A stretch of 64,000 nucleotides of DNA from Escherichia phage JLBYU50. The position numbers and the translations under genes were made by a program. Location: sequence record OK272470.1; one strand, written 5' to 3'. The notes under the pieces were generated by a model. The model did not search any database and had not been told where the DNA came from. It saw only the letters and a program-made list of their open reading frames with translations. Positions 24,808 through 64,000 of the stretch are shown in pieces (positions within the stretch are counted from its first letter, which is position 1; each line of letters opens with the position of its first letter).

Positions 24808-25456
24808 TATCTATGAACAAATTGAATTGTATGAAAATACGATATTATTAAATATCGCTAAGTTCTTACAAAGACTAGTGGGGCTTCCGGTTTATGTTAT
24901 GGATAAACCATTTGTTAAACCAACAACCCCATATCTGACATTACGTATTGTATCATCTGATGATTCAGGTGGTTGGTCACAAAAATATTCTTTTAGTGAA
25001 GATGCGTTTTCCTATCTAATGGACAATAAGTATGAAATAGAACTTATGGCTTTTAGAGGAAGACCCATGACACTTTTAAGTTATGTTCTTGCGGCACTTC
25101 GTGGTGCAGATGAATTAAAATACCAGTATCTTTATTCCAAAGGTATTAGCTTCTTATCTGCAACAAATGTTGCACAGGCTAACACTGTTCTGGATGGAGA
25201 TAAAACTGAACAAAGAGCGAGAATATTTCTTACATTCAATACTACGATGGTTATTGAGGATTTAGTAACTACCGAAATTGAAGCAATTAATATGAACATT
25301 CATTCGTTCAGAGATGATTACGATGATCCTACTCCAATAGATCTTCCTTTGGATAAGATTTACATTGTTGCTCACAGAAGTAAAACTTATTACTTTACGA
25401 CGACTGATGATGGATCATTAATTAAGTATATCCCAACGGATAATTCATTGGAATAA
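24800..25456 (+). CDS. hypothetical neck/tail protein
   Basis: ORF-track frame; probable TTG start at 24800, 9 nt after GAGGAGGG, overlapping upstream stop. Confidence 0.4.
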   Translation: MANIYEQIELYENTILLNIAKFLQRLVGLPVYVMDKPFVKPTTPYLTLRIVSSDDSGGWSQKYSFSEDAFSYLMDNKYEIELMAFRGRPMTLLSYVLAALRGADELKYQYLYSKGISFLSATNVAQANTVLDGDKTEQRARIFLTFNTTMVIEDLVTTEIEAINMNIHSFRDDYDDPTPIDLPLDKIYIVAHRSKTYYFTTTDDGSLIKYIPTDNSLE

Positions 25457-25476
25457 AGTTTCTAACAGGAGCATAA

Positions 25477-26883
25477 ATGGCAACTTTTCGTGATAAGGTA
25501 GTTTCCGTAACCCTTACCTACGGTGCTACTTCAATTAGTGAAACACAGTTTGATATCCCTCTAATTCTTACAGGGCATAACGTTACTGGCAATCTTGTAG
25601 ATTATTTCACTTCTTCAGACGCACTTCTGCAAGCAGGTTTTGGCACTGCCGATCCAGCTTATAAAATGGCAAAACTACTATTTGACGGTCTGTTCGCACC
25701 AGAACAAGTTATCGTCGGTAAGCGTGATGTTTCTAAAACAACTCTAACTCCAGTAGTTGAAGATAGTGCAACTTACGTTATCACTATTAAAGCAAATTCA
25801 AAAAGCAAGGACTTCAAGTTTGTTGCCGATGATACTGCAACTGCTCAAGAGATTGTTGTTGGTTTAACAGAAATGATCAACGCAGACGTAGTGTATAAAG
25901 AATTTTTCACTGTGTCAAACGATGGTAGTGTTATCACTGTAACCCCAGTTGCAGGTAAATACGCTACTATGGATAGTTCAGGATTCACAACTAATGTAGA
26001 ATATGCAAATGATATCTTAGAAGATATTGCTAAAATTGCAGACTATGAAAACAGTTGGTTCTGGTTACTATCTGATTCTCACGCAGAACAAGATATTATC
26101 GATCTAGCAGGTTATGTAGAAGAGCACGATAAAGTGTATTTCTTCTCTACCTCGCAACCAGGTGTTCTAACTAAAGAAGAAGATAACATTCTAGAACGCT
26201 TAGGTGATATGGGCTACAATAACACTTGTATGGCATTGTGGATGACTAACGCTGACACAGTGTTCCCAGAGGCTGCTGTAGTTGGTTCTATCTGCTCTGC
26301 AACACCAGGTACTACTACCCTGCATGGTAAAACCCTTGTTGGTATCGAGATTGAAAAACTTGGTCAGACAGCAGAAAACTTTATTGTTCAACAGAATGGT
26401 AATATTTACCGTAAAGAACACGGTGTTCTGTTCTACCGTGATGGCTTCATGGTTAGTGGTTTCTATGTTGACTATGTGGTACACGCTCTGTGGTTCAAAG
26501 CTCGCGTAGAAGAATCTCTGTTCGCTCTATTCAAACAGCAATCTATGCTTGGTAGTGGTGTTAGAGCAACTTCTGCTGGTCTTGCTTTGATTCGTCAGGC
26601 TGTTACTGCAAACCCAATCCAAGTAGGTATTAACAATGGTTCTATTGCCAATGAGGTAGTAACTTCAGAGGAAACAGGACTTCTGGTAAGCCTTAAACCT
26701 ACTATCTATATCCCATCTCGTGCAGATATGACTGATGCTCAAATCAATGCACGTTTGGTTGATGGTATGGTTATTGAATACGTATATGCTGGATTCTTCC
26801 ACTATGTTAAAGTGCAGGTAAACGTTCTGACGAACCGCACTGCAAATAGCCAGAATTCCAATAGCTCTACTGTATCTTCATAA
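25477..26883 (+). CDS. tail sheath protein (by size and position)
   Basis: 468-aa ORF immediately upstream of a 159-aa tube-sized ORF, then chaperone and tape measure: canonical contractile-tail order. Confidence 0.55.
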   Translation: MATFRDKVVSVTLTYGATSISETQFDIPLILTGHNVTGNLVDYFTSSDALLQAGFGTADPAYKMAKLLFDGLFAPEQVIVGKRDVSKTTLTPVVEDSATYVITIKANSKSKDFKFVADDTATAQEIVVGLTEMINADVVYKEFFTVSNDGSVITVTPVAGKYATMDSSGFTTNVEYANDILEDIAKIADYENSWFWLLSDSHAEQDIIDLAGYVEEHDKVYFFSTSQPGVLTKEEDNILERLGDMGYNNTCMALWMTNADTVFPEAAVVGSICSATPGTTTLHGKTLVGIEIEKLGQTAENFIVQQNGNIYRKEHGVLFYRDGFMVSGFYVDYVVHALWFKARVEESLFALFKQQSMLGSGVRATSAGLALIRQAVTANPIQVGINNGSIANEVVTSEETGLLVSLKPTIYIPSRADMTDAQINARLVDGMVIEYVYAGFFHYVKVQVNVLTNRTANSQNSNSSTVSS

Positions 26884-46098: not shown

Positions 46099-46440
46099 AT
46101 GGAGCTAACAGAAGTATGGGATATCGCTAAAGAGGCGATTATCCCTCTTATTGGCGTAATCTGGGTGGTCTTCAAACAGAAGATAGATGATATGGCAAGT
46201 GATTTGGATAAAATGGAAGACAAATACCGCGAACTAGAAAAGAAGTTGGTGTTTGTTGAATCCACTTATGCTACCAAAGCGGAACTTGCTCAAATGCTTA
46301 ACCAGATCAACTCTACATTAATGGCAAATAACACTGCCTTAGAACAGAAGATTGAAAAAATAATGGATTTAAAAAATGCTCCTGTTCAATTAATGTTAGA
46401 GGAGATTACGAAGCGCACACAAAGTAAGGACAAAAATTAA
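46099..46440 (+). CDS. small protein with N-terminal hydrophobic helix and coiled coil (113 aa)
   Basis: ORF track; IIPLIGVIWVVF segment then heptad-rich region. Confidence 0.4.
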   Translation: MELTEVWDIAKEAIIPLIGVIWVVFKQKIDDMASDLDKMEDKYRELEKKLVFVESTYATKAELAQMLNQINSTLMANNTALEQKIEKIMDLKNAPVQLMLEEITKRTQSKDKN

Positions 46441-48854
46441 TGGCGAATTTTCCAACATATCCTGCTACGACACTAGAACAAGGTGTTGATCTGGTTATAT
46501 TCTCGTCTAACCAGATGCATGATGTTATTAATGGGGATGCTACAGCAACTGTAGAAACCGAAACAGGTTTAATACCTACACTGCGTAAAGCACTTGTTGA
46601 TAACTTCTTCTTTAAGAGTCCTGTTGCTTGGTCAGCAGGATCAACTGAAACTGTATTTAACCAGTTACGTTATTTTGAAAACGGTATCTTGAGTGGGTAC
46701 TATTATGCCCCATCTGCCACTACTGCGAACCCTGTACCTATGCAGGGAACACCTGTAGGAGACAGTAACTGGACTCTGTACGCTCTTAAAACTGAACAGT
46801 TAGCTTCAGATGTGTATCCTTGGTATTTTAAAGGTGCTACAGGATATGAAACAGAAATCAGTCCTCCTTATATCTTTGATAATGCTATTGTCACCATTAA
46901 CGGTGTAATTCAGATTCAAGGTGAAGCATTTACTATCAAAGATAGTAAAATTATTCTGGCAGAACCATTAGGTTTAGATCCGTCTACTGGTCTACCTAAC
47001 AAATTGTTTGCTTTTATTGGTAAAACAACAGCCTCTACTTCTTACGTAGAGAAAAACCTTTTGTCATCCACCACTGGTGCAGCAATGGTTGGTCTTCCAT
47101 CTGGAGGCAACCTGTTACAAGCTCAATACTTTGTAACGCCTGAGCAGTTTGGTGCAATTGGTGATGGAGTTACCGATGATACTCAAGCAATTTTAAAAAC
47201 CATTACTTTCGCTAACACGAATAACATTCAAGTACGTGCAGATAAGAATTATAGATTCACAAGCTCAATTGCTATGTCTGGTATTCGTTGGTATGGTGGT
47301 ACATTCACTGGTAACGGTGGAACAATGATTTCTACTGTGTCCTGTTGGATGGAAAACGTTCGCTTTGAAAAATGTTATGTTAAGATGTTAGGTGGTGATT
47401 GCCGATTCTATCGTAATATCTTCTCCAATGCAACATCTACAGCAGCATTCTTAATGCAAGCAATGACAAGTGAAGGTACGTTGGACTTCAGTTACAACGA
47501 AATGTATGGTTGTAAATATGCGATCCTGCAACAAGGTACTGGAGAAGTAATGACCTACGGGCGTTACTCTAACAACTATATTCACGATATTAAAGGTGAT
47601 GCTATTGAACTTAACGTAGTTCAAAAACACTACACTGAAGGTTTGATTATCGAGAATAACCACATTGCTAACGTAGATGCTTCTGGACAAGGGGCAAACT
47701 GGGGTATTGGTATTGGTGTAGCAGGTAGTGGCCCATATGGTGTTGATGTTCCTGATTCACAATATGTACGTAATTTCAGTATCGTTGGGAATAGGGTTTA
47801 CAATTGCCGTCAATGTTTACACGTTGAAATGGGTAAAAACTTCACAATACGTGATAATGAAGTTTATCCTAACACAGCAGTTTCAACAGGTACAGGTTTA
47901 ACTACTTGTGGTGTTGCATTATACGGATGCCAAGATTTTGAAGTTGATGGTTTAACTGGTTATCTGCTTAATGATCCATCTGTTTCAACACGCATGGTCT
48001 TTATTGACTGGGGTGTTAACAGTGGAAGATATGCGGGGCCACCAATTAACTTTACAATTAAGAATTTGGATATTCCAGAATCTTCAATTGAGATTGCAAC
48101 ATCTGGATCAGATGACTGGGAAAACTCTACAATTGTTAGTAATATCAATTGTAATGTTTTTAAATGGCGTGGGCTACCATCTAGCTCTACCTTTAATAAT
48201 ATTCGTTGCCGTAGTATTGACTTTATTGGTCAACACGGAAGCGGAGAAGGAAGTGGTGGCGGTTTCTATACTCGCAGCCAATTCACGTATATGAAGTGGG
48301 TAGGATGTACAGCACTTAGCGGAGATGAAACAACAGTTTCTTTTGCTAAAATCTACACTGATCGTTGCGATCAGGTTGGAAATAACTTTGGTGTTCCAAC
48401 TGCTGTTGATGGTACAGGTCATCGTGGGCCAGTTTTAACTACTATTTCTGAACAATATTTTACAGCTTATGATGAATTCCCAGGTGGGCGTGAATTCCCT
48501 ACTGGAACAGTTATTCATTGTGCAAGCGGTAAAAAACATGTTGTTACAGTAGGTGGTGCTTTCTTTAGTGCCAACGAGAAAATAAAAGCAACTGTTACAG
48601 GTCAAACCTATCTACAGTCTAATGCTTTAAACTGGGCTAGTAATGGCTACGCTAAAGCAGCAGGTACTAAGATTGTTATTCCAGGTGCAGGTGCAAATGG
48701 CGGCGATCTTGTGACAACTATAGCACGTGCTACATATGTGACAAATAGTTTGTACACAATAGATATTGCAGATCCAATTGTAACACCTACAGCAGAGAAT
48801 ACACAAATTAAAGCTCTGAACCCTGTTACTTTTGTTACTGTCAATAATGCTTAA
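46440..48854 (+). CDS. tailspike with pectate-lyase-type beta-helix (depolymerase-like)
   Basis: FGAIGDGVTDDTQAI near 47147-47190, hallmark N-terminal cap of pectate-lyase-fold tailspikes; 804 aa. Confidence 0.65.
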   Translation: MANFPTYPATTLEQGVDLVIFSSNQMHDVINGDATATVETETGLIPTLRKALVDNFFFKSPVAWSAGSTETVFNQLRYFENGILSGYYYAPSATTANPVPMQGTPVGDSNWTLYALKTEQLASDVYPWYFKGATGYETEISPPYIFDNAIVTINGVIQIQGEAFTIKDSKIILAEPLGLDPSTGLPNKLFAFIGKTTASTSYVEKNLLSSTTGAAMVGLPSGGNLLQAQYFVTPEQFGAIGDGVTDDTQAILKTITFANTNNIQVRADKNYRFTSSIAMSGIRWYGGTFTGNGGTMISTVSCWMENVRFEKCYVKMLGGDCRFYRNIFSNATSTAAFLMQAMTSEGTLDFSYNEMYGCKYAILQQGTGEVMTYGRYSNNYIHDIKGDAIELNVVQKHYTEGLIIENNHIANVDASGQGANWGIGIGVAGSGPYGVDVPDSQYVRNFSIVGNRVYNCRQCLHVEMGKNFTIRDNEVYPNTAVSTGTGLTTCGVALYGCQDFEVDGLTGYLLNDPSVSTRMVFIDWGVNSGRYAGPPINFTIKNLDIPESSIEIATSGSDDWENSTIVSNINCNVFKWRGLPSSSTFNNIRCRSIDFIGQHGSGEGSGGGFYTRSQFTYMKWVGCTALSGDETTVSFAKIYTDRCDQVGNNFGVPTAVDGTGHRGPVLTTISEQYFTAYDEFPGGREFPTGTVIHCASGKKHVVTVGGAFFSANEKIKATVTGQTYLQSNALNWASNGYAKAAGTKIVIPGAGANGGDLVTTIARATYVTNSLYTIDIADPIVTPTAENTQIKALNPVTFVTVNNA

Positions 48855-53716: not shown

Positions 53717-53720
53717 TAAA

Positions 53721-53750
53721 AAAGGAGCCTAATGGCTCCTTTTCTTTTAT
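53721..53750. terminator. bidirectional terminator at convergent junction
   Basis: AAGGAGCC-TAAT-GGCTCCTT flanked by AATAAAAAA upstream and TTTCTTTTAT downstream; separates last + strand gene from first convergent minus-strand gene. Confidence 0.65.
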
Positions 53751-53751
53751 C

Positions 53752-54183
53752 TTAATCAGTGAAAATTACGCTTACATCTTCTTTAGAAAAGAGTTTATGA
53801 TCTTCACCTTTTGTCTCAAGAGTTTCATACAGGTTAAGAAGTTCTGAAACATCTTTCTCTACCAGTTTCTTCAATGTTGCAATTTTCTGTTTGCGATTCT
53901 TAATACGTTCAGCTACAACCTTACGTTGGTATCCAGCAGTACGATAACCTGAGAAAGTTACACCAGTGAGACTTGCAGTTACAGGATCGTAATGACGTTC
54001 AATCTGAAATTTATTAAAAGGTACAGCGTCATCACGAATAATCTTCCCGCCATTACTTACTTGACGAAGACCAGTAACTTGTTCTAGTCGTGCCATAGAA
54101 ATCTTTGGAGACAGACCAGAGTCTAGGTTCATACCATTGTTAATCAGTGCTTTCAGGGTGATTTTGCTGTTCAGTGTACTCAT
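53752..54183 (-). CDS. hypothetical protein (143 aa)
   Basis: ORF track; 5' end overlaps the methyltransferase gene by 44 nt, so the true start may be the internal Met (MNLDSGL). Confidence 0.4.
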   Translation of the reverse strand: MSTLNSKITLKALINNGMNLDSGLSPKISMARLEQVTGLRQVSNGGKIIRDDAVPFNKFQIERHYDPVTASLTGVTFSGYRTAGYQRKVVAERIKNRKQKIATLKKLVEKDVSELLNLYETLETKGEDHKLFSKEDVSVIFTD

Positions 54184-54871
54184 TTAGTCGTTCCTCCGCT
54201 TGCTTAAAAATATTTACATCGGCTTCACAGCCTAAGTATTCTCTACCTGTTAAAAGTGCCGCAACTTGTGTTGTTGCACTTCCAGAGAAGAAGTCTAAGA
54301 CTACATCTCCTTCGTTGGTGTGTATATTAATAAGGTCACAAAACAAAGTCAAGTGTTTTTGTGTTGGATGAAAACGATCTGCTCCTTGATAGATAGGATA
54401 CTCAAACACACCCTTATGGTAGGAAGCATTGAAGGTTGGCTTAGAACCTTTAACACAAACAATAGCCATTTCTTTAGCGTTACTAAGGTAGTTAACACCA
54501 CTGTTGATGGGTACAGGGTTTGTTTTAATCCATTCAATAGTACGGAACATACGAAAACCAAGCGGTTCAAGGATTTCACGTAGCTCCTGGATCTTCCAGA
54601 TATCATACCAAACTATGCAAGTACCACCTTTTCTAAGCACCCTGTAGGCTTCTTTGAATACTTCTTTAAAGTAAGGAATATCTACAACATCCCAATCACC
54701 AAAGTTGTAAGATACACGGAATCTATCCGTATCTTTTCCAGTAGGCTCTCCAGATTGAAAATTTGTGTCACGAGAAATAGCATATGGTGGGTCAGTAAGA
54801 ATCAAATCTACACTATTGCTTTCGAGGGTTTGCAGGTAGTTTAATGCGGTGTTGTTTACAAATTCGCTCAT
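54140..54871 (-). CDS. DNA N6-adenine (amino) methyltransferase, beta-class
   Basis: catalytic DPPY (LILTDPPYAI) near N-terminus, HPTQKHL block, SAM-binding FFSGSATT near C-terminus; motif order IV before I. Confidence 0.75.
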   Translation of the reverse strand: MSEFVNNTALNYLQTLESNSVDLILTDPPYAISRDTNFQSGEPTGKDTDRFRVSYNFGDWDVVDIPYFKEVFKEAYRVLRKGGTCIVWYDIWKIQELREILEPLGFRMFRTIEWIKTNPVPINSGVNYLSNAKEMAIVCVKGSKPTFNASYHKGVFEYPIYQGADRFHPTQKHLTLFCDLINIHTNEGDVVLDFFSGSATTQVAALLTGREYLGCEADVNIFKQAEERLNEYTEQQNHPESTD

Positions 54872-54879
54872 TATATCTC

Positions 54880-54910
54880 CTTCAAAGAAAAGGAGCCGTT
54901 AGGCTCCTTA
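54880..54910 (-). terminator. rho-independent terminator (minus strand)
   Basis: AAGGAGCC-GTTA-GGCTCCTT; on minus strand followed by TTTTCTTTGAA. Confidence 0.55.
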
Positions 54911-54931: not shown

Positions 54932-55879
54932 TTAGAAACAGTGCAGGAAGTTTCGACCATACTGCAAACCAATAGGAGCAAATGGGATATCATCATCGAA
55001 ATCTTGAACAACAGGTTCTGGTTCTTTCGGTGCTGGCTCTTTCTTCTCTACTTTTTTAGTTTCTTTCTTAACTTCTTGTACTGGGGTAGACATTCCACGG
55101 ATAGCAGCAGCTACTTTATCAGACAAAGCAAGAACTTCACGAGCAGCTTCAATAATCTCTTCTGCCGTTACAGTTTTACCTGTATGATCACGACAAGCGT
55201 TAAGAATTGCGTGTCCAACTGAAGCACCAAGATCATAATCAGTCACATCAACGCCACGATCTTTAGCAATTTCTGCTTTCAGAGTAACAGTTGCAGATTG
55301 TACCACACCAGCCAAGTCGAAAGCATCACCTTTCACACCAGCACGTAGAAGCTCCAGAGCGCCGTTTACAGCGTGTCCTGTTTCAATCCCTACGGTATCA
55401 CGTTTTTTGTAGTTAGGCTTGCTACCTTCGTTATTAGATGGCTTATTTCCACCTTTTGAAGAAGATTGTGCTTGCTGAACACCTTCTGTTGAAAGAATAG
55501 TGATTTTACCTTTAGAGGAATTGTAGTATGTTTTGCCATTCCATTCAGAAGGTTTAACATCCATAGTTAGTTCTACACCTTTTTCGATAGTAACCCACTT
55601 GTCACCATCTTTAACTTGCAGGTTTTCATGTTCTGGATGCAGTTTAACTTCACCTAGGCTAACCCAAACACCTTTATCATCAGCACTAGCACCTTTCTCT
55701 TTAATAAGCAGAGATGCTTTGTGAGTTGATTCAATTTTCTTATCTGGCTGACCTGCAACCTTAATATAAGAGACTTTCATTTCATCAAACTTATCCAGTT
55801 TGACATATTCAACGATACCTTCAGCCCAGAATGCTTCTTTTTTAGTACGACGGTCGATTTCAGAATTAATTACTGGCAT
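54932..55879 (-). CDS. ssb: single-stranded DNA-binding protein with internal acidic DFDDDIPF motif
   Basis: OB-fold-like N-terminal half, Gly/Ser/Asn-rich linker, acidic DFDDDIPF identical to bacterial SSB C-terminal tip, followed by 15 extra residues. Confidence 0.65.
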   Translation of the reverse strand: MPVINSEIDRRTKKEAFWAEGIVEYVKLDKFDEMKVSYIKVAGQPDKKIESTHKASLLIKEKGASADDKGVWVSLGEVKLHPEHENLQVKDGDKWVTIEKGVELTMDVKPSEWNGKTYYNSSKGKITILSTEGVQQAQSSSKGGNKPSNNEGSKPNYKKRDTVGIETGHAVNGALELLRAGVKGDAFDLAGVVQSATVTLKAEIAKDRGVDVTDYDLGASVGHAILNACRDHTGKTVTAEEIIEAAREVLALSDKVAAAIRGMSTPVQEVKKETKKVEKKEPAPKEPEPVVQDFDDDIPFAPIGLQYGRNFLHCF

Positions 55880-56337: not shown

Positions 56338-56931
56338 TTAAATCTTAAATTCTTCGTTGTTAAATGAATCTAGTGTACGTACTTCTGGCTCTTTGGGAAT
56401 GAAAACGTCTTTTACAAAGCGGAACATAGGGAAACGTTCTGCCATTTTACGGACGTGTGCTTCTTTACCTGTGTATCGGTGATTAATAGTACAAATATTA
56501 GTTTTCAGTGCAAATTCAAAATCTGGATGATATACATAATTTTGACCATCCCAGTAACACAAGCAAATAGCTACATCAAAGTTCCATACGATTTCACTGC
56601 GTACACCTTCTTCCATGATCATAAAGTTAAACTTAAGATCTTTATAGTATGCTTCAAATACCCATTTCAAATGTGGTAGTTCGGCATAAGTGTGTTCTGT
56701 TTGCTTAGTAAGTTGTTTAACATTACGTGCACCAACACCCAACATCAAAAATTTCTCTACTAGTACGATTGTATTGTGGTTAGGCATACGCAAGTAAATA
56801 TCAATATCTTGCGCAGGTTTCTCTAATCGCCAATCACGTACAGCGCCGCCAGCTACAATTGCAAACGGATCTACCAGTTGGCACATACGTAACACTTCTA
56901 AAGCTCGTACTTTTTGATCTTCAATATTCAT
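56338..56931 (-). CDS. Pol-beta-superfamily nucleotidyltransferase (CCA-adding/poly(A) polymerase head-domain-like)
   Basis: IVAGGAVRDWRL followed by DIDIY: GGxVRD glycine loop plus DxD carboxylates typical of class II tRNA nucleotidyltransferase/PcnB heads; only 197 aa. Confidence 0.55.
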   Translation of the reverse strand: MNIEDQKVRALEVLRMCQLVDPFAIVAGGAVRDWRLEKPAQDIDIYLRMPNHNTIVLVEKFLMLGVGARNVKQLTKQTEHTYAELPHLKWVFEAYYKDLKFNFMIMEEGVRSEIVWNFDVAICLCYWDGQNYVYHPDFEFALKTNICTINHRYTGKEAHVRKMAERFPMFRFVKDVFIPKEPEVRTLDSFNNEEFKI

Positions 56932-57068: not shown

Positions 57069-59648
57069 TCAGTGACAACTAGCCCATGAGTTACCAACAT
57101 CGTAACCAGCAGTGAGAGGTACATTAAGATTGTAATACTCACCAGCTTTATTAACAGCAATAGATGCTAATTCTCCAGCACGACTGTAGGCTGTAAACCA
57201 ACCACCTTTCGGAGATTCATGTACGTTAGCCCAAATCTTGCCAGTACGTTTCTCTTCCTCTTCTTTCCAGGTATTAACTTTATCCAAACATTCTTTATCA
57301 ATTTTCTTTTGTTCTTCTGGATCATCAACTTGAGTCCAACCTAAAGATTCTTTAGAGAACCATTTAAAATGCACCAGATCACGAGTTACTTCAAGCTGTG
57401 CTTCATCGTGGTATGCAATCATTTGTTGAACGAATGACTTATTTTTCCAGTCATCAACAAAAAAGTCAACAGCTAATCCTTCTTCTTCGATAAGATCATC
57501 GTAGATAACCATTGCTCTTTTTGCACAAATAACACCACCACTCTGGAACAGAGAGTTAAGTATTGCGTGTGCAGATCGTGTAGGTACTTTCCTTCCATCA
57601 ATACCAAGAATGTATTTCTTACCTGTTTTAACCCAAAAATCATGCAGACGTTCTTTAAGAAGAGCAAGAGGTTTTGCAGCTTCCCAGAAAGCATCGTATA
57701 CAAGCTGTCCTGTATACATATCACTACCAATGGTTTTTGCTACTTTTGCAGCTTGAGCACCATAAGTAATACCATACTTAACAGATTTAGCAGGGCTTCG
57801 TTCAAACTTACGACCAATAGTATCAGAAATACGTCGAGCCATCATTGTATGAACATCATTAGGTTTTTCCAACAATAGAGCATTACAATATTCGTGTGGT
57901 TCCTGCTCGTACCGCCAACAGTAGTGTGATTCTATTTTTGCCTCAAGAGAATCAAAGTCATAACCAATTTGGAAGTATTTTGGAACTTCTACACCAAATA
58001 AGTTACGCATTTCATATCCGTACAGAGATGTTACACGTGGGATATTTGCTACTAACCTATGTTTCATACGAGATGTAGCTGCATCACACGTTGCAGCAGG
58101 AGTTGGTATACGACCATCAGCCCTTACTGCTGCCAGATAACCTTTATCGTAATCCTCTTCATCTTCTTCCCAATCAGCACCACCCCCTAAAATAGAGTTC
58201 CTACGGTGTTTATACGTAAGATACTGCACAATCTGCGTAGCATAAGGAAACTTTTCACCTAGTGCTTCCAAGTTAGGACAAATATCTTTCTCTTGCCCTT
58301 TTGTAAAGGAAGGGTTAGTAAGCACTTTAACACCACGACCTTTAGCTTTAGCAATACGATCTCTTAGTTTCCATTCCAAAGTTTCTGGTGTGCACTCCAG
58401 ATGATCACATCTGTCCTGGCAGAAGTTAGATGCTAATGTTTGATCAACGTAGTCACGAATAGCTTTCTCCATTTGTGCTTCATCTTTCTTAATCTTAGTG
58501 CCAGATTTAAGAGTGATATCTTTATCTTTATATTCAGATGGACTCCAACCTAAACCAACTAACCAGTTTTTAATATGTGTAGTGTCATCTAAAGTAGCAG
58601 GTACTGTAGGATCACAAATAGGTTCTTCTGCTGGAATAGGGAGTTTAAACTCTTTACCTAATGCAAATAACCACCAACCATCTTCTTTTTGTACAAGTTC
58701 ACCAGAATGTTTCTCTGCAAACTTTATCATGTTACTTGAAGGTTCACCATTCTTTTTAAACTGTAGTTTAGGTGGAATGAATGATTTCAAATAACCTTTA
58801 GTAGCAGGTTTGGGAGGTAGTACAGGTTCTGCCTCTAAACGACATGCTTCCATTCGAGCATCCAGATCACGAATATTATCTTCTGCTTGTTTCATATTGA
58901 AAGCAAAGCCACGGTGCTCTTGACGTGTAATAATATCAGCTACACGTTGTTCTAAGTTAAATGGTTCAGACCACTTATTATAATCACCCCACTCTTCCAT
59001 CAAATAACGGAACACTGCGGTGTTAGCTTTGTTATCGTAAATACAGTAATACAGCATATCTGCTGCAAATGTTTTAAATCTTTCAGTTTCAGGAATGTTT
59101 TTTCTAAAATCAATTTTAACATCCCCTCCAGCTTTCTTAGATAACTCTGCCAGACTATGACCACCGAAGCGATCAGGGTTTAGTGTCTTACTTAAGATCA
59201 TAGTATCACAAATTTCAATGTTACTATTACCCCAAGTATTGTACTTAATACTATAGTTGAGTTTAAAAAATAATTTAATTGCCAGTAAGTCGAAGTTAAT
59301 GATGTTGTGTCCAACTACTTTGGTAATTTTATAGTTTGAATTACCTTTAAATTTACCTGTTCCATTTACAAAATCAGGAAAATCTTTAAGAGGGAAATGG
59401 GTATATTCTAAATGCTCATATTCCTCCAGTCGGTATTCATACTTTCCGTCAGTCTCAATATACGGACGACCATCGAAAAGATATTTATCACCATCATGGA
59501 AAGCAATAATCTCTCCAGTATCATGACTTTCGCACACAATACAGTGCATTGCAAAACTATCTTTTAAACGATATGGACTTGCCAAGTAATCTACACTTTC
59601 GTCATTAAGCAAGTTGTTACTTTCAATGTCGAAAGTAAAAGCTCCCAT
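57069..59648 (-). CDS. DNA polymerase, family A, with 3'-5' exonuclease
   Basis: Exo I FDIES near N-terminus; motif A DFDSLEAKI, motif B KSVKYGITYG, motif C YHDEAQ in canonical order. Confidence 0.8.
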   Translation of the reverse strand: MGAFTFDIESNNLLNDESVDYLASPYRLKDSFAMHCIVCESHDTGEIIAFHDGDKYLFDGRPYIETDGKYEYRLEEYEHLEYTHFPLKDFPDFVNGTGKFKGNSNYKITKVVGHNIINFDLLAIKLFFKLNYSIKYNTWGNSNIEICDTMILSKTLNPDRFGGHSLAELSKKAGGDVKIDFRKNIPETERFKTFAADMLYYCIYDNKANTAVFRYLMEEWGDYNKWSEPFNLEQRVADIITRQEHRGFAFNMKQAEDNIRDLDARMEACRLEAEPVLPPKPATKGYLKSFIPPKLQFKKNGEPSSNMIKFAEKHSGELVQKEDGWWLFALGKEFKLPIPAEEPICDPTVPATLDDTTHIKNWLVGLGWSPSEYKDKDITLKSGTKIKKDEAQMEKAIRDYVDQTLASNFCQDRCDHLECTPETLEWKLRDRIAKAKGRGVKVLTNPSFTKGQEKDICPNLEALGEKFPYATQIVQYLTYKHRRNSILGGGADWEEDEEDYDKGYLAAVRADGRIPTPAATCDAATSRMKHRLVANIPRVTSLYGYEMRNLFGVEVPKYFQIGYDFDSLEAKIESHYCWRYEQEPHEYCNALLLEKPNDVHTMMARRISDTIGRKFERSPAKSVKYGITYGAQAAKVAKTIGSDMYTGQLVYDAFWEAAKPLALLKERLHDFWVKTGKKYILGIDGRKVPTRSAHAILNSLFQSGGVICAKRAMVIYDDLIEEEGLAVDFFVDDWKNKSFVQQMIAYHDEAQLEVTRDLVHFKWFSKESLGWTQVDDPEEQKKIDKECLDKVNTWKEEEEKRTGKIWANVHESPKGGWFTAYSRAGELASIAVNKAGEYYNLNVPLTAGYDVGNSWASCH

Positions 59649-60144: not shown

Positions 60145-61917
60145 TTAATAAGAACCATCAGGAATATTCTCTGGGTTACTTGTGTATTGATCGTAATCGT
60201 GAAGTGTAGCTGTTTTAATCTCATAGAAGAAACTACCTGCTGCACCAGTCTCTGAGAACTCACGGTTCTTTAGAATGTAGCAATATGTGCGGTTACGTTC
60301 CATAGGATCTTCAGCTTGTTTATCACGCTCCAGCGCAATTGTGATACCAGCACCTTTAGCAAGGAAGCTACTACCCATTGCATCATCTTCTACAATATGT
60401 TCATTACTATTGTTAGAAGACTTTTTAACGTGTGAAATTACAACAATGGTAATTGCGTACTCTTTCATAATGCGTTTGAGCCACGTCGCAAGTTCCTCTT
60501 GTTGTGACACGTCCATACCAGAAAGCAAGTCAGAATAAGGGTCGATAACAAGAATGGTTACTCCGAAATAAATAATCATTTCCAGAACCTTCTCTTTAAT
60601 CACATCTACGTTAGCTCCACGATCATCACAAACATAGAAACGTGGTGTTCCATCTTCTCGTTCGTAAAAATCACGAATCTTTTCTTCATTATCTTTTAAA
60701 ATCTTTTCCTTCTCTTCTTTCGTTTTACGGTGAAGAGGGATATGCAAGAATGAAGACAGTAAGTTACGAGAATACTTCTTATACGTTGCCTCCAAAGATA
60801 AAATACCAAGAGTATGTTCTGGGTGTGCAAGAATAATGTGCTTCGTAATCTCGTTAACCAACAGTGTTTTACCGATACTTGTTTTTGCAAGTATAACAGT
60901 AATTTCTTCTTCTACCAAGCCTCCACCTAACATATTAGAAGCAACACGCATGAATGGAGGAAGGGTGATCATTTTAGCTTCCAGGCATTCCAAGGCTGCT
61001 TCATACAGTACGTTAGAAGCGTAAACACCAGCAGGTGTGTACAGTTTAGCTTTGAAAAAGCGATCAATAAAATGATCAATTTTTCCTTCTACTAGTGCCT
61101 GGTTAGGATCTTTAACATCAGTTAGTTCCATCACGTAAACTTTATTACGTGGTAAGATTTTAACACATTTCTCAACTGCTGCACGTCCAGCGTCATCATT
61201 GTCCATACATAGAACAATCTTTTTAAATTGGTCTAAGAATTTATAACGATGTTGAAGCTGCTTATGCAGAGATGTTTCGCCACAAGTACCAGATACTACA
61301 GCAGGAACAGGATATTTACCACCCTTGTTATAATCTTTTAGCATCTGTGTTGCAGCCAGCATATCGTGTTCACCACCAACGATTAGAATAGTACCGCTGT
61401 GGTTACGATATTTAAACTCCCCAAAAAGATCACAATCCTTTCCTGTTTCACCGATAGGATGTGAGAAATCTTTTGGATCGATACGTTGTTTATACCCCGC
61501 AATATTGTAATCTTTAGTTGTAGGGTATAGTGTTGAAATTACTTCGCCAGTAGCTTCATCGTACATATAACGTACACCGAAAGGCTTAGAGATATCTTCA
61601 CGAATACCGCGATAACCTTTTGGATTAGTTCCAGTGCTGGCTTTTAGTTTATCATGTACTTCTGGATTAAACTCACTACCCAAGATATCCTCCTCTTCAA
61701 TTTCTTCGCCGTGTGCATTTAACCATTTTTGATCAGGGATAGTAAAGCCACAAGAAAAACAATGTGCGCCTCGATGGTCTTCATCGGCATCTAAGCCATA
61801 TACCATCAAATTGTTTTGTGATCGATCACGCCCTCCTTTCATACAACGAGGACACCCAGTATGTCCTTCTTGACTTAGATCAATGTTATACCCATATTTA
61901 TTTACAACATAAGACAC
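60145..61917 (-). CDS. primase-helicase (zinc-ribbon primase fused to DnaB-like helicase)
   Basis: N-terminal Cys4 CPRC...CFSC, central region, C-terminal Walker A AKTSIGKTLL; 590 aa. Confidence 0.75.
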   Translation of the reverse strand: MSYVVNKYGYNIDLSQEGHTGCPRCMKGGRDRSQNNLMVYGLDADEDHRGAHCFSCGFTIPDQKWLNAHGEEIEEEDILGSEFNPEVHDKLKASTGTNPKGYRGIREDISKPFGVRYMYDEATGEVISTLYPTTKDYNIAGYKQRIDPKDFSHPIGETGKDCDLFGEFKYRNHSGTILIVGGEHDMLAATQMLKDYNKGGKYPVPAVVSGTCGETSLHKQLQHRYKFLDQFKKIVLCMDNDDAGRAAVEKCVKILPRNKVYVMELTDVKDPNQALVEGKIDHFIDRFFKAKLYTPAGVYASNVLYEAALECLEAKMITLPPFMRVASNMLGGGLVEEEITVILAKTSIGKTLLVNEITKHIILAHPEHTLGILSLEATYKKYSRNLLSSFLHIPLHRKTKEEKEKILKDNEEKIRDFYEREDGTPRFYVCDDRGANVDVIKEKVLEMIIYFGVTILVIDPYSDLLSGMDVSQQEELATWLKRIMKEYAITIVVISHVKKSSNNSNEHIVEDDAMGSSFLAKGAGITIALERDKQAEDPMERNRTYCYILKNREFSETGAAGSFFYEIKTATLHDYDQYTSNPENIPDGSY

Positions 61918-61929
61918 ATGATTCTCCTA

Positions 61930-62199
61930 CTAAAATGATTCGTTTGTCTCCATAATATATTGCATTTCCAAATCTTCCATATGTTTCTTAAATTGGTAAA
62001 CAATTTCCGATGGGGAAATATCTATATCAAAAAGTTCTTTTGTACCAGAATAAAATCTAATACCATCAACAATAAGACCACCATAATAATCCCAATCACT
62101 TTCTCGTGAGAAAGGGTTAGGTTCTTCATAATAGTAATCTACTTCAACAATAATAGGTTCTTTATTATCTTGTTTATACTCAAAATCAAAAGTGTTCAT
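61930..62199 (-). CDS. hypothetical protein (89 aa), acidic
   Basis: ORF track. Confidence 0.4.
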   Translation of the reverse strand: MNTFDFEYKQDNKEPIIVEVDYYYEEPNPFSRESDWDYYGGLIVDGIRFYSGTKELFDIDISPSEIVYQFKKHMEDLEMQYIMETNESF

Positions 62200-63143
62200 T
62201 ATAAATCCTCGATAAGCAGTCTGCGGGTTTCATTTAAATCATCAATATTGTAGTTATCTCTTACATACTTAGCAAGAGCCAATCCTTTCTCAATACAAAC
62301 ATCAGGGGATTCGATTAAGTATTCTACAATATCTTTCCACTCTTTAACTGAATCAGCAAAGAAGATTAGATCTTTAAATTCTTCAGTATAGTAGTTCTCT
62401 CGTGGTGAACAAACGAGTGGCAAACCTTTAGCACCAGCTTCAAGAATTTTTAAATTACTTTTGGCATTATTAAAATGATTATTTACTAACGGAGCTATGG
62501 AGATTTGATGACCATCGTATGCTTCCATATAGCACTCATAAGGACGAATACCTTCATAAACACAATTTGGTTGAATATCTTCTTTAATTTGCAACCATTG
62601 AGCACTACTTAACTCTTCGTGATCTCTACGAAATCCACATAAAGTTAAATCTTTACCAAAACTAGGAAGAATAGCTAAATCATGTTTATGTGTTTCACTT
62701 CCCGCCCAAACCAGTGGACTTTTAGAATAACGATCTTTAGTAAGAACAAACTGTCCTTCATCAAAAGGTAGTCCGTTAGGCACAATATGTACATTATCAT
62801 TGTATTGGCTTAATTCAACCTTTAATGCTGGAGTTGTTGTAGTTACAAGATCGCTTCTTTCAAGGAACCATTTTAGGTCATCTCGGATTTGATTTTCAAA
62901 TAATCCTTCCAGCATATGCCCTTCAGGAATAATTAAAGAATCATCCAGATCCATTACCAATTTAAACCCAAGTTGTTTAAGAGCCAGGAAACCTGGCTTT
63001 CCACGGGTTGGTACTCCATTGAACACAAAAATATTATGCTTAGGATTAATGGTCAGTTTGCGTTTATATGGCAAAATGATTCTGTGAAAATCACATACAC
63101 TATACTTTTCATTTCCGCGTGTGTCAAGAATAATATTAGGCAT
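62199..63143 (-). CDS. GT-B fold glycosyltransferase-like protein (paralog 1)
   Basis: C-terminal SNLKILEAGAKGLPLVCSP resembles GT-B E-x7-E/Gly-loop donor-binding block; paralogous to adjacent gene. Confidence 0.55.
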   Translation of the reverse strand: MPNIILDTRGNEKYSVCDFHRIILPYKRKLTINPKHNIFVFNGVPTRGKPGFLALKQLGFKLVMDLDDSLIIPEGHMLEGLFENQIRDDLKWFLERSDLVTTTTPALKVELSQYNDNVHIVPNGLPFDEGQFVLTKDRYSKSPLVWAGSETHKHDLAILPSFGKDLTLCGFRRDHEELSSAQWLQIKEDIQPNCVYEGIRPYECYMEAYDGHQISIAPLVNNHFNNAKSNLKILEAGAKGLPLVCSPRENYYTEEFKDLIFFADSVKEWKDIVEYLIESPDVCIEKGLALAKYVRDNYNIDDLNETRRLLIEDL

Positions 63144-63154
63144 ATCGCTCCTTA

Positions 63155-64000
63155 TTAAAGACTTTCAATAACTTGACGACGCAGTTCATTGGCATCTGCA
63201 AGATTATAATTAAGACGAACGTGTTCTGCAAGCATCATACCACGATCTTCTGTGTATCTAGGGTTCCTCATTAGCTTGACAACTTCATAATGCCAAGATG
63301 CTTTAGAGTCTGCATAGATAACAGCCTTTGCATCTACCGGATTGAAGTACGGCAGCACAGGAGAACAGATAATAGGAAGACCCTTTGCACCTGCTTCCAA
63401 AATCTTCAAATTGCTTTTACAGTTGTTGAAGTCATTATCTACCAGAGGAGCAATTGCAATACTGTGACCGTCATACACAGACATATACTCACCTAAATTT
63501 TTAATAGCTGGTTTATACTGTGCATTTGGAATTTTACGTTTTACTTTAACCCACTCCGCAGTAGTTAGATACTGACTATTATTTCCAACAGGTGCAGAAG
63601 GATACACTTCATACCCTGCAATTGTCAATAGTGTATCATCAAATGTATTAGCTACAAGAGATAAATCAGGCTCATGGCTTGCTCCTCCAGCCCAAACAAT
63701 AGGCGTGTCAGAATAACGGTCTTTTGTTAAAGTAAATTGACCTTCGTCGTAAGGCAGTGCGTTTCTAATAACGACAACATTACGATTTAAATGACGAATT
63801 TTGTAAGCTAGGTATTCTGTTGTTACTGTAACAACATCTGCTAACTTAACCATCTCTACAATAGTCTTTGAGTGATTAGTAAATACGCCAGCCATATAAT
63901 GTTCAGGATTAAGCGAATAAAAATCATCTAAATCAACAATAATCTTAACACCTTGTGCCTTCAGGCGTTTAACTTCGTCTGATCCACGAGAATACACTCT
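63155..64000 (-). CDS. GT-B fold glycosyltransferase-like protein (paralog 2; N-terminus beyond window edge)
   Basis: shares LPYDEGQFTLTKDRYS..WAG, YDGH.I.IAPLV.N.FNN.KSNLKILEAGAKGLP with paralog 1; alignment implies about 35 residues lie beyond position 64000. Confidence 0.5.
   Translation of the reverse strand, partial: RVYSRGSDEVKRLKAQGVKIIVDLDDFYSLNPEHYMAGVFTNHSKTIVEMVKLADVVTVTTEYLAYKIRHLNRNVVVIRNALPYDEGQFTLTKDRYSDTPIVWAGGASHEPDLSLVANTFDDTLLTIAGYEVYPSAPVGNNSQYLTTAEWVKVKRKIPNAQYKPAIKNLGEYMSVYDGHSIAIAPLVDNDFNNCKSNLKILEAGAKGLPIICSPVLPYFNPVDAKAVIYADSKASWHYEVVKLMRNPRYTEDRGMMLAEHVRLNYNLADANELRRQVIESL

Follow-up and report, generated by a model that had tools for sequence, protein, structure and literature searches.

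A probable domesticated restriction-modification cassette of the NlaIII/IceA type in a phi92-like coliphage

A 64,000-nucleotide stretch of Escherichia phage JLBYU50 (OK272470.1), called here in its entirety the window, encodes a small DNA methyltransferase (MTase; 54140-54871) whose 3' end overlaps the 5' end of a second gene (53752-54183), which we call the partner. So-called "orphan" methylases of phages tend to be classed as straightforward anti-restriction genes with no assigned target. The partner, which GenBank records label only as hypothetical, resembles the non-catalytic half of an IceA/NlaIII-type restriction endonuclease (REase), many cellular relatives of the MTase stand directly upstream of full-length IceA-like genes, and the window avoids CATG more than any other tetranucleotide. 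We consider it reasonably probable that the window carries a domesticated restriction-modification (R-M) cassette of the NlaIII/IceA type and not a classical orphan methylase.

The MTase was defined by the following elements.

54140..54871, minus strand: MTase open reading frame (ORF), ATG start, 243 residues, orthologue of phi92 gp155; matches PF01555 and PDB 5HEK.
54782..54793, minus strand: motif IV, DPPY, catalytic, residues 27-30, from the translation; invariant in a 36-sequence family alignment.
54350..54370, minus strand: HPTQKHL block, residues 168-174, at the end of a short target-recognition domain (TRD), from the translation.
54269..54292, minus strand: motif I, FFSGSATT, residues 194-201, S-adenosylmethionine (AdoMet) binding, from the translation.

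A GAAGGAG ribosome-binding site precedes the ORF, and a check of the translation gave the motif order IV, TRD, I, by which class-β amino-methyltransferases are defined (PMC7544214). The D-P-P-Y/F pattern typical of N6-adenine enzymes was present in 36 of 36 aligned family members, and His168, Thr170, Gln171, and Lys172 were invariant in the same alignment. Asp27 and the conserved Glu216, downstream of motif I, were also invariant; these residues are the counterparts of Asp29 and Glu216 in M1.HpyAVI, both of which are essential (PMC5173035). The catalytic and AdoMet-binding residues of the phage enzyme are all intact. Database comparisons agreed with this picture: PF01555 (N6_N4_Mtase) aligned over all 221 of its positions with residues 21-227, scoring 106.9 bits (cutoff 26.7; E=1.9e-30), phrog_67 "DNA methyltransferase" matched at E=2.5e-56, PADLOC Type II MTase models at E=1.5e-46, and the M1.HpyAVI structures 5HEK/5HFJ at E=1.1e-28 and 36% identity, with NCBIfam giving only sub-threshold matches (CcrM and others) and no equivalog. 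The protein is a class-β, DPPY-type DNA MTase and hence most likely an N6-adenine enzyme, as had been proposed in an earlier sequence-only reading of the window whose ORF coordinates and motifs we confirmed. That reading had also likened the enzyme to Dam, as GenBank does for the orthologue bas60_0039 of phage PaulScherrer. We rejected membership in the Dam family: the motif order is β and not the I, TRD, IV order of Dam, PF02086 is absent among the Pfam matches, and the window shows no avoidance of GATC (observed/expected, O/E, 0.91). Because of the motif order and the missing PF02086 match, the GenBank annotation is imprecise. Seen by itself, the MTase is of a familiar type and had been annotated before.

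The partner has the following parts.

53752..54183, minus strand: partner gene, 143 residues, phi92 gp154, phrog_20244 "unknown function"; characterized with hhalign, HMMER, AlphaFold2, and Foldseek.
53932..54141, minus strand: residues 15-84, homologous to IceA residues ~53-124; helix-helix-β-hairpin, winged-helix-like.
54028-54057: conserved SNGGKIIRDD, which aligns with TNGxxWxRxD of IceA.
53809..53937, minus strand: residues 83-125, a single long predicted helix in place of the HNH domain (AlphaFold2 model).

Several comparisons connect the partner to IceA. First, profile-profile alignment with 28 sequences on each side matched partner residues 15-98 to IceA residues 53-145 (hhalign Prob 96.0%, E=4.3e-9); the local mode gave 95.3% and 2.3e-8, a shallow alignment gave 88.9% and 2.4e-6, and a negative control of the partner against the MTase profile gave 0.14%. 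Second, HMMER matches between the two families were reciprocal. A hidden Markov model (HMM) of the IceA N-terminal half found the partner as its top match in six of six phages carrying the cassette (E 1e-7 to 9e-4; 1.9e-6 in the window), and a partner HMM run against cellular MTase loci gave matches that were weak, yet six of the best seven were IceA-like ORFs themselves. Third, a complete profile search across 1.84 billion representatives, used after a word-based search had returned four clusters only, recovered ~25 small partner clusters (50% identity) together with a 206-residue protein (P0151, E=1.4e-5) that belongs to PF05315 at 61 bits and bridges the partner and IceA families. Fourth, the two families have the motifs S/T-N-G-x-x-(I/W)-x-R-x-D, (F/Y)-x-I-x-R, and (F/L)-x-G in common. 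Finally, an AlphaFold2 model built from the 28-sequence alignment (pLDDT 95.2; a model from five sequences, pLDDT 55, was unusable) contained two helices, a β-hairpin, and a 43-residue helix, and Foldseek searches with it returned a family member (E=2e-11), many helix-turn-helix (HTH) proteins, and, at rank 3, a protein of a giant virus that bears the annotation "ICEA1 virulence factor" (75 residues, prob 0.96, 3.8 Å).

The catalytic half of IceA, by contrast, left no trace. An HMM of the HNH half found nothing in the window or in five other cassette phages (E>0.4), and the IceA invariants Asp158, His159, Asn188, His194, and Cys146/Cys195/Cys198/Cys226/Cys229 have no counterpart in the partner. 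On the profile-profile, HMMER, and fold evidence, the partner is a derivative of the non-catalytic N-terminal half of an IceA/NlaIII-type nuclease in which a helix has replaced the HNH half. Residues 15-84 presumably form a DNA-recognition domain, a label that stays provisional because matches to PDB entries are insignificant and no structure of the IceA/NlaIII family has been solved; the long C-terminal helix is a possible oligomerization element.

A small protein in an R-M-like operon adjoining replication genes might instead be a controller (C)-protein-like regulator that times expression of the MTase or of phage genes, with the MTase itself playing an epigenetic or regulatory part in replication or packaging and not one in evading defense. 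The winged-helix-like fold, weak fold matches to MarR/PadR/RTP-type binders, and the many viral "HTH domain" proteins among the fold matches fit such a role. The partner, however, has no Pfam match to C-protein/HTH_3 families, its homology is specifically to a REase N-terminal half and not to regulators, no CATG lies within or beside the cassette as an operator, and a partner persists in Pseudoalteromonas phage J2-1, whose genome is CATG-free. We regard a regulator of this kind as very unlikely.

The two genes are arranged as follows.

54140..54183, minus strand: 44 nucleotides shared by the end of the MTase gene and the start of the partner gene, read from the sequence.
54193-54197: GGAGG ribosome-binding site of the partner, inside the MTase gene.
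54890..54909, minus strand: terminator-like hairpin AAGGAGCC-TAAC-GGCTCCTT, on the upstream side, between the SSB-like gene and the cassette.
53720..53743, plus strand: near-identical hairpin AAAAGGAGCC-TAAT-GGCTCCTTTT, downstream, between the convergent tail-fiber gene and the partner.

This overlap gives the pair an R-M-like and, as far as the layout indicates, translationally coupled arrangement, and the same overlapping layout recurs in L007, L083, L084, L168, L171, and L172 (L and P numbers are our handles for compared sequences). Among cultured Justusliebigvirus records with the MTase at no less than 99% identity, which include three phages of the BASEL collection and therapy candidates, the partner is present in 55 of 55. 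Overlapping pairs also occur in at least six other phage backbones, with partner homologues of 125-143 residues and ~25-40% identity; the unrelated carriers are L083/L084 (large phages of RNR/ThyA/PhoH type), L087, L088, L168, L171, and L172, and L169/L170 have the pair in a T7-like context. No third gene is conserved beside the pair across these backbones. Nonsynonymous-to-synonymous rate ratios (dN/dS) between the window and L007 were ~0.10 (partner) and ~0.08 (MTase); dS was saturated. By these patterns the pair is under purifying selection and moves as a unit among unrelated phages. In the window the two hairpins bracket the cassette. In phAPEC8, which belongs to a sister genus, both genes are absent at an otherwise syntenic junction, and the empty site has one hairpin with a different stem, which suggests that the cassette inserted at, or duplicated, a terminator.

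The MTase family is a large one, with 5,126 clusters at E<=1e-10. When GTDB genomes were scanned with one sequence, no relatives emerged; an alignment-based scan, with one genome per GTDB species, identified 74 cellular loci encoding relatives that are 45-57% identical over their full length. Among the 70 loci with at least 900 nucleotides of downstream DNA, there were 31 in which the MTase was immediately followed, in the same orientation, by an IceA-like gene, in many cases with overlap at the MTase stop codon; the remaining loci had mixed, often mobile-element-like surroundings. One bacterial MTase that is 57% identical to the phage enzyme (P0068) lies directly upstream of a PF05315 "ICEA" gene. 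The IceA-like genes at these loci are true members of PF05315 (E 1e-28 to 1e-111, up to 372 bits), and their products have the HNH residues D-H...N...H together with a zinc site of four or five Cys. No other candidate MTase was found within 4 kb in 30 of 32 IceA-linked loci, and therefore the small β-class enzyme must protect the nuclease site. The phage MTase thus belongs to a family that acts, in both bacteria and archaea, as the only modification enzyme of such type II systems. In a simple neighbor-joining tree without support values, IceA-linked MTases were scattered throughout, basal branches included, and the phage/metagenome clade was nested inside. The P0068 pair itself lies in a defense-island-like region next to a JetABC(D)/Wadjet operon (metagenome contigs L002-L006), and GATC is absent from this 12.7-kb locus (O/E 0.0); the locus looks like a defense island in a GATC-avoiding organism.

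These loci bear on the plainest alternative, namely that the MTase is an orphan anti-restriction or regulatory adenine enzyme whose specificity is not known and that its 143-residue neighbor is unrelated to it. Many family members are indeed solitary (57 of 80 loci in IMG/VR and 39 of the 70 cellular ones), no nuclease domain was found nearby, and the GenBank annotation of the neighbor as merely hypothetical lends it no function. The neighbor, however, overlaps the MTase and accompanies it in all 55 genomes and in several unrelated backbones, it shares ancestry with the N-terminal half of the REase found in its place in cellular relatives, and the sister genus is without both genes together. 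We find this alternative quite unlikely. The sequence-only reading had called the MTase an orphan with no restriction endonuclease gene nearby. It was right that no nuclease domain is encoded, and for that reason the MTase is functionally solitary; it missed that the overlapping ORF descends, by the comparisons above, from a restriction enzyme and that the MTase is the first gene of a conserved two-gene cassette with this nuclease-less derivative.

The cellular relatives also suggest what the MTase recognizes. IceA1 is a functional NlaIII isoschizomer that cuts CATG, and its companion hpyIM is a CATG-specific adenine methylase (PMC2816704, PMC13340068, PMC4202330). The phage MTase has the same residue as IceA-linked MTases at 73 of the 89 positions where these are at least 90% conserved. 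In the stretches presumed to contact DNA (post-DPPY loop, W-x-K-T-N-P-V-P-x-N hairpin, and short TRD), it agrees with them at 35 of 43 such positions, and most of the other changes are conservative. As judged by sequence relationships, these comparisons show descent of the phage MTase from CATG-type R-M systems. We infer that its target is CATG and its product C(m6A)TG, because of the REase neighborhood of its relatives, the retention of contact-loop residues, and the avoidance of CATG in phages with the cassette. A target site that the sequence-only reading had left blank can thus be replaced by a prediction, which draws on the 31 of 70 loci, the loop residues, and the place of CATG as the most avoided tetramer.

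CATG was the most under-represented tetranucleotide in the window when expectations were taken from a second-order Markov model and 136 tetranucleotide classes were ranked (97 observed against 221 expected, O/E 0.44, z=-8.3, rank 1 of 136). Depletion persisted when synonymous codons were shuffled within genes (90 against 147, 0.61, z=-7.7), and it affected all ten NCATGN contexts, most strongly CCATGG (0 against 11.8 expected), GCATGC (1 against 9.9), and ACATGT (2 against 20.6). A small set of controls without the cassette and five phages with it gave these values.

E. coli K-12, control without cassette: CATG O/E 0.75, rank 8 of 136.
rV5, control without cassette: CATG O/E 0.85, rank 12 of 136.
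phAPEC8, sister genus, control without cassette: CATG O/E 0.73, rank 6 of 136.
Pseudoalteromonas phage H101, control without cassette: CATG O/E 0.61, rank 4 of 136.
L007, cassette phage: CATG O/E 0.15, rank 1 of 136.
L083, cassette phage: CATG O/E 0.17, rank 1 of 136.
L087, cassette phage: CATG O/E 0.24, rank 1 of 136.
L084, cassette phage: CATG O/E 0.63, rank 5 of 136.
L088, cassette phage: CATG O/E 0.70, rank 5 of 136.

Viral contigs with a complete MTase+IceA pair had a pooled CATG O/E of 0.47 (rank 1), with single loci down to 0.05-0.18. CATG is the sequence that matters to genomes bearing the module, and the effect is not universal.

The specificity might nonetheless lie elsewhere. The MTase could methylate another motif (GAGG/GGAG/GAAG, as M1.HpyAVI does) or act in a relaxed or non-specific manner like prophage M.EcoGII, in which case CATG avoidance would reflect host restriction pressure unrelated to it. 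M1.HpyAVI, the best PDB relative, is promiscuous and has a short, disordered TRD, the phage TRD is equally short, non-specific β-class phage enzymes exist (PMC7544214), and the absence of CCGG from phage J2-1 shows that host-driven purging happens. The phage enzyme, however, is only 36% identical to M1.HpyAVI and 45-57% identical to IceA-linked MTases; its hairpin and loop motifs differ from those of HpyAVI (HRRY versus S-x-x-NY) and are near-invariant in the IceA-linked family; a family that supplies the only MTase in 30 of 32 IceA loci must protect the REase site; and several independent carriers avoid CATG more than any other tetramer. A target other than CATG is, in our view, unlikely.

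If the window carries a domesticated NlaIII/IceA-type cassette, the following sequence of events can be proposed. The pair would have inserted between the tail-fiber and replication modules of phi92-like phages. The intact β-class MTase would methylate the adenine of CATG on phage DNA; self-methylation of the phage is, on this evidence, the natural activity to expect of the enzyme, because no active nuclease is encoded beside it. The partner would be a CATG-reading DNA-binding protein that is unable to cut and that binds unmethylated CATG. Methylation would hide phage DNA from CATG-specific restriction and from the partner itself, and the partner, on unmethylated CATG, might act in anti-restriction by occluding sites or by poisoning host REase subunits or dimers. 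Alternatively, the partner may bind host DNA. The purpose of the cassette is the least certain part of this mechanism.

Pseudoalteromonas phage J2-1 (MF988720; L175-L177) bears on that purpose. It encodes a genuine partner (ATN93514, E=5e-44) and no MTase of the studied family anywhere in its genome, and its 142,204 bp contain 0 CATG against 348 expected (a pattern check gave 0 against 150 +/- 11 in 50 kb). A partner that shields CATG sites of its own phage would be useless in J2-1, because the genome has none, and the option of a partner acting on host DNA gains weight because J2-1 keeps the gene all the same. Host restriction alone could explain the purge of CATG in J2-1, because CCGG is missing too (0 against 95 expected). 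In the two most divergent partner lineages (L173:116-655 and L174:196-726), the overlapping upstream gene encodes a protein of 176-179 residues that contains the motif "IISNPPF" and matches the Eco57I/EcoRI methylase families of Pfam below threshold only; this protein may be an unusually small γ-type adenine MTase, which hints that coupling of the partner to "an" adenine MTase is what matters.

The cassette might accordingly be seen as a nuclease-free device for telling self from non-self, in which the partner would read unmethylated CATG on host DNA and coat it, silence it, or mark it for other nucleases, while the phage genome would be exempted by CATG methylation in cassette phages or by CATG purging in J2-1. 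This possibility would explain why the partner is strictly coupled to an adenine MTase even when the type of MTase differs, why the MTase is translated first, why CATG avoidance is stronger in carriers than in the sister genus, and why the partner is kept in J2-1, where no CATG remains for it to shield. We offer it tentatively and as somewhat unlikely.

More improbable still is a working phage restriction system, in which the partner would lend CATG recognition to a nuclease encoded elsewhere, either a phage HNH enzyme or one of the host, so that unmethylated host DNA is cut and phage DNA is spared by the MTase and by site avoidance. Chlorella viruses use a CATG-centered R-M system with an m6A methylase (CviAII) in this way, protecting the viral genome and attacking host DNA; CviAII, however, includes an active endonuclease of a different family, and the phage cassette has no nuclease domain. 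CATG avoidance in cassette phages exceeds that of the sister genus on the same host, as in genomes with a cognate REase, and in CATG-free J2-1 an HNH endonuclease gene stands immediately before the partner gene. That HNH protein is unrelated to the HNH of IceA, however, and the undetectable IceA HNH half in the window and five other cassette phages, the lack of a conserved third gene, and the absence of a full-length IceA-like gene from 50,697 phage records all speak against restriction by the pair.

Several points weigh against the interpretation of the window as a domesticated CATG cassette. We found no methylation or binding experiments for any family member in the literature, nor any methylome or restriction-digest data for Stephanstirmvirinae. 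Experiments have established CATG specificity for NlaIII and H. pylori IceA1 alone and do not extend to the IceA-like genes at the loci used here, the specificity of the MTase is transferred across only 45-57% identity, and a few substitutions, such as P41S in M1.HpyAVI, can shift MTase specificity (PMC5173035). The controls were also mildly CATG-depleted (O/E 0.61-0.85), the cassette phages L084 and L088 were no more depleted than these controls, and a self-methylating phage might be expected to loosen, not tighten, its avoidance of CATG. The partner falls below the PF05315 threshold in Pfam, with no match even at E<=10, and its Foldseek matches to PDB folds are weak (best E=0.2), mostly to winged-helix DNA binders on DNA. 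J2-1 retains a partner without an MTase of the studied family. The threat that the cassette would counter in E. coli is unclear, as IceA-type REases are nearly absent from plasmids: one full-length IceA-like gene, in Priestia, was found among 72,556. Lastly, phi92-like phages were "exceptionally susceptible" to the R-M systems tested with the BASEL collection (PMC8594841). Those systems were EcoRI, EcoRV, and type I and III enzymes, none of which cuts CATG (PMC8594841); the sensitivity is silent on CATG but shows that the MTase is no general shield.

Known systems resemble the cassette in part. M1.HpyAVI of H. pylori (5HEK/5HFJ; 232-240 residues), an N6-adenine enzyme as the phage MTase most likely is, is likewise a small class-β protein with a very short TRD, and both have DPPY, HPTQK, F-x-G-S-x-T-T, and equivalents of Asp29 and Glu216. 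They differ in the post-DPPY loop and the β6-β7 hairpin (HRRY versus SGVNY), and M1.HpyAVI belongs to an MnlI-type system that methylates GAGG/GGAG/GAAG, whereas neighborhood and k-mer statistics indicate CATG for the phage enzyme. In the NlaIII and HpyI (iceA1-hpyIM) systems, the correspondence lies in the PF05315 nucleases with which cellular relatives of the phage MTase pair, in the homology of the phage partner to the N-terminal half of such a nuclease, and in the predicted product, C(m6A)TG, which is that of M.NlaIII and M.HpyI. The phage copy, however, has no HNH domain and so cannot restrict, the phage gene order is MTase and then REase derivative, and M.HpyI and M.NlaIII have ~330 residues compared with 243 in the phage MTase. 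Most H. pylori strains have a mutated or truncated iceA1 beside an active hpyIM, and a retained function has been speculated upon (PMC13340068). There, as predicted for the phage, an active CATG methylase stands beside a non-cutting IceA-family gene; the H. pylori genes are strain-specific frameshift alleles, whereas the phage partner is a stable, selected family with a new C-terminal helix. T4 and P1 Dam and M.EcoGII are also phage adenine MTases without an active cognate nuclease that are presumed to pre-empt restriction, but Dam is class α (PF02086) with the site GATC and M.EcoGII is non-specific, whereas the phage MTase is class β. We know of no Dam- or M.EcoGII-type orphan that is coupled to a nuclease-less derivative of a former REase.

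The coupled, disarmed REase derivative and the CATG prediction are what is new here. The prediction is testable and applies to the MTase of all 55 cultured phi92-like records that carry the gene, and phrog_20244, annotated as "unknown function," gains an origin and a probable DNA-reading role. The partner suggests that the recognition half of a restriction enzyme can persist under selection after its nuclease half has been lost, and its comparison with IceA provides a first domain-level dissection of the structurally uncharacterized NlaIII/IceA family. If the partner does read unmethylated CATG, it would represent a new kind of phage counter-defense or host-targeting factor and a compact natural methylation-sensitive binder of a 4-bp site.

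The window belongs to a phi92-like coliphage (Justusliebigvirus, Stephanstirmvirinae) and is 98.6% identical over 5 kb to phage vB_Eco_J-01. The MTase gene corresponds to phi92 gp155 and to bas60_0039 of the BASEL phage PaulScherrer (Bas60). It ends a leftward replication module that converges on the tail-fiber operon, and the earlier placement of the MTase beside replication genes holds for the four genes listed here.

54932-55879: SSB-like gene.
56338-56931: nucleotidyltransferase.
57069-59648: DNA polymerase I.
60145-61917: primase/helicase.

Elsewhere in the window we found no other DPPY/NPPY or C5 MTase candidate, nor any counterpart of gp078 from phAPEC8; the single further motif match, SPPY in the 808-residue tail-fiber ORF at 46428-48851, was not treated as an MTase. 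In phAPEC8, gp078 is an NPPF-type adenine MTase (locus 25271-26065) encoded between the polymerase and primase genes. GTAC is the most avoided tetramer in the sister genus, with an O/E of 0.31 in phAPEC8 (L082, NC_020079 80951-124553), and its O/E in rV5 (L165) is 0.55; gp078 and GTAC avoidance may form a parallel pairing of an MTase with an avoided site. Strong avoidances beyond CATG were multiple in the 20.7-kb metagenomic phage L084, where CCGG is absent and GGCC nearly so (O/E 0.0 and 0.1).

DNA polymerase I of the window (859 residues) lacks the intein found in that of PaulScherrer (L001 13558-16872), and several relatives have an HNH endonuclease gene or extra small ORFs between the nucleotidyltransferase and polymerase genes, a region that is a hotspot of mobile insertions. 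Downstream of the primase gene, at 62199-63997 and beyond (compare L001 19423-22599), lies a cluster of glycosyltransferase/"disaccharide synthase" genes, which the BASEL authors describe as putative dTDP (deoxythymidine diphosphate)-glycosylation machinery (PMC8594841). The cluster bears on how phi92-like phages deal with restriction, and DNA modification by it is only conceivable. Finally, three records named Campylobacter phage A110a, A145, and A150 (MG065689, MG065639, and MG065645; host C. jejuni) are ~98-99% identical to phi92-like phages of E. coli over the region compared here and are probably mislabeled or contaminant genomes.

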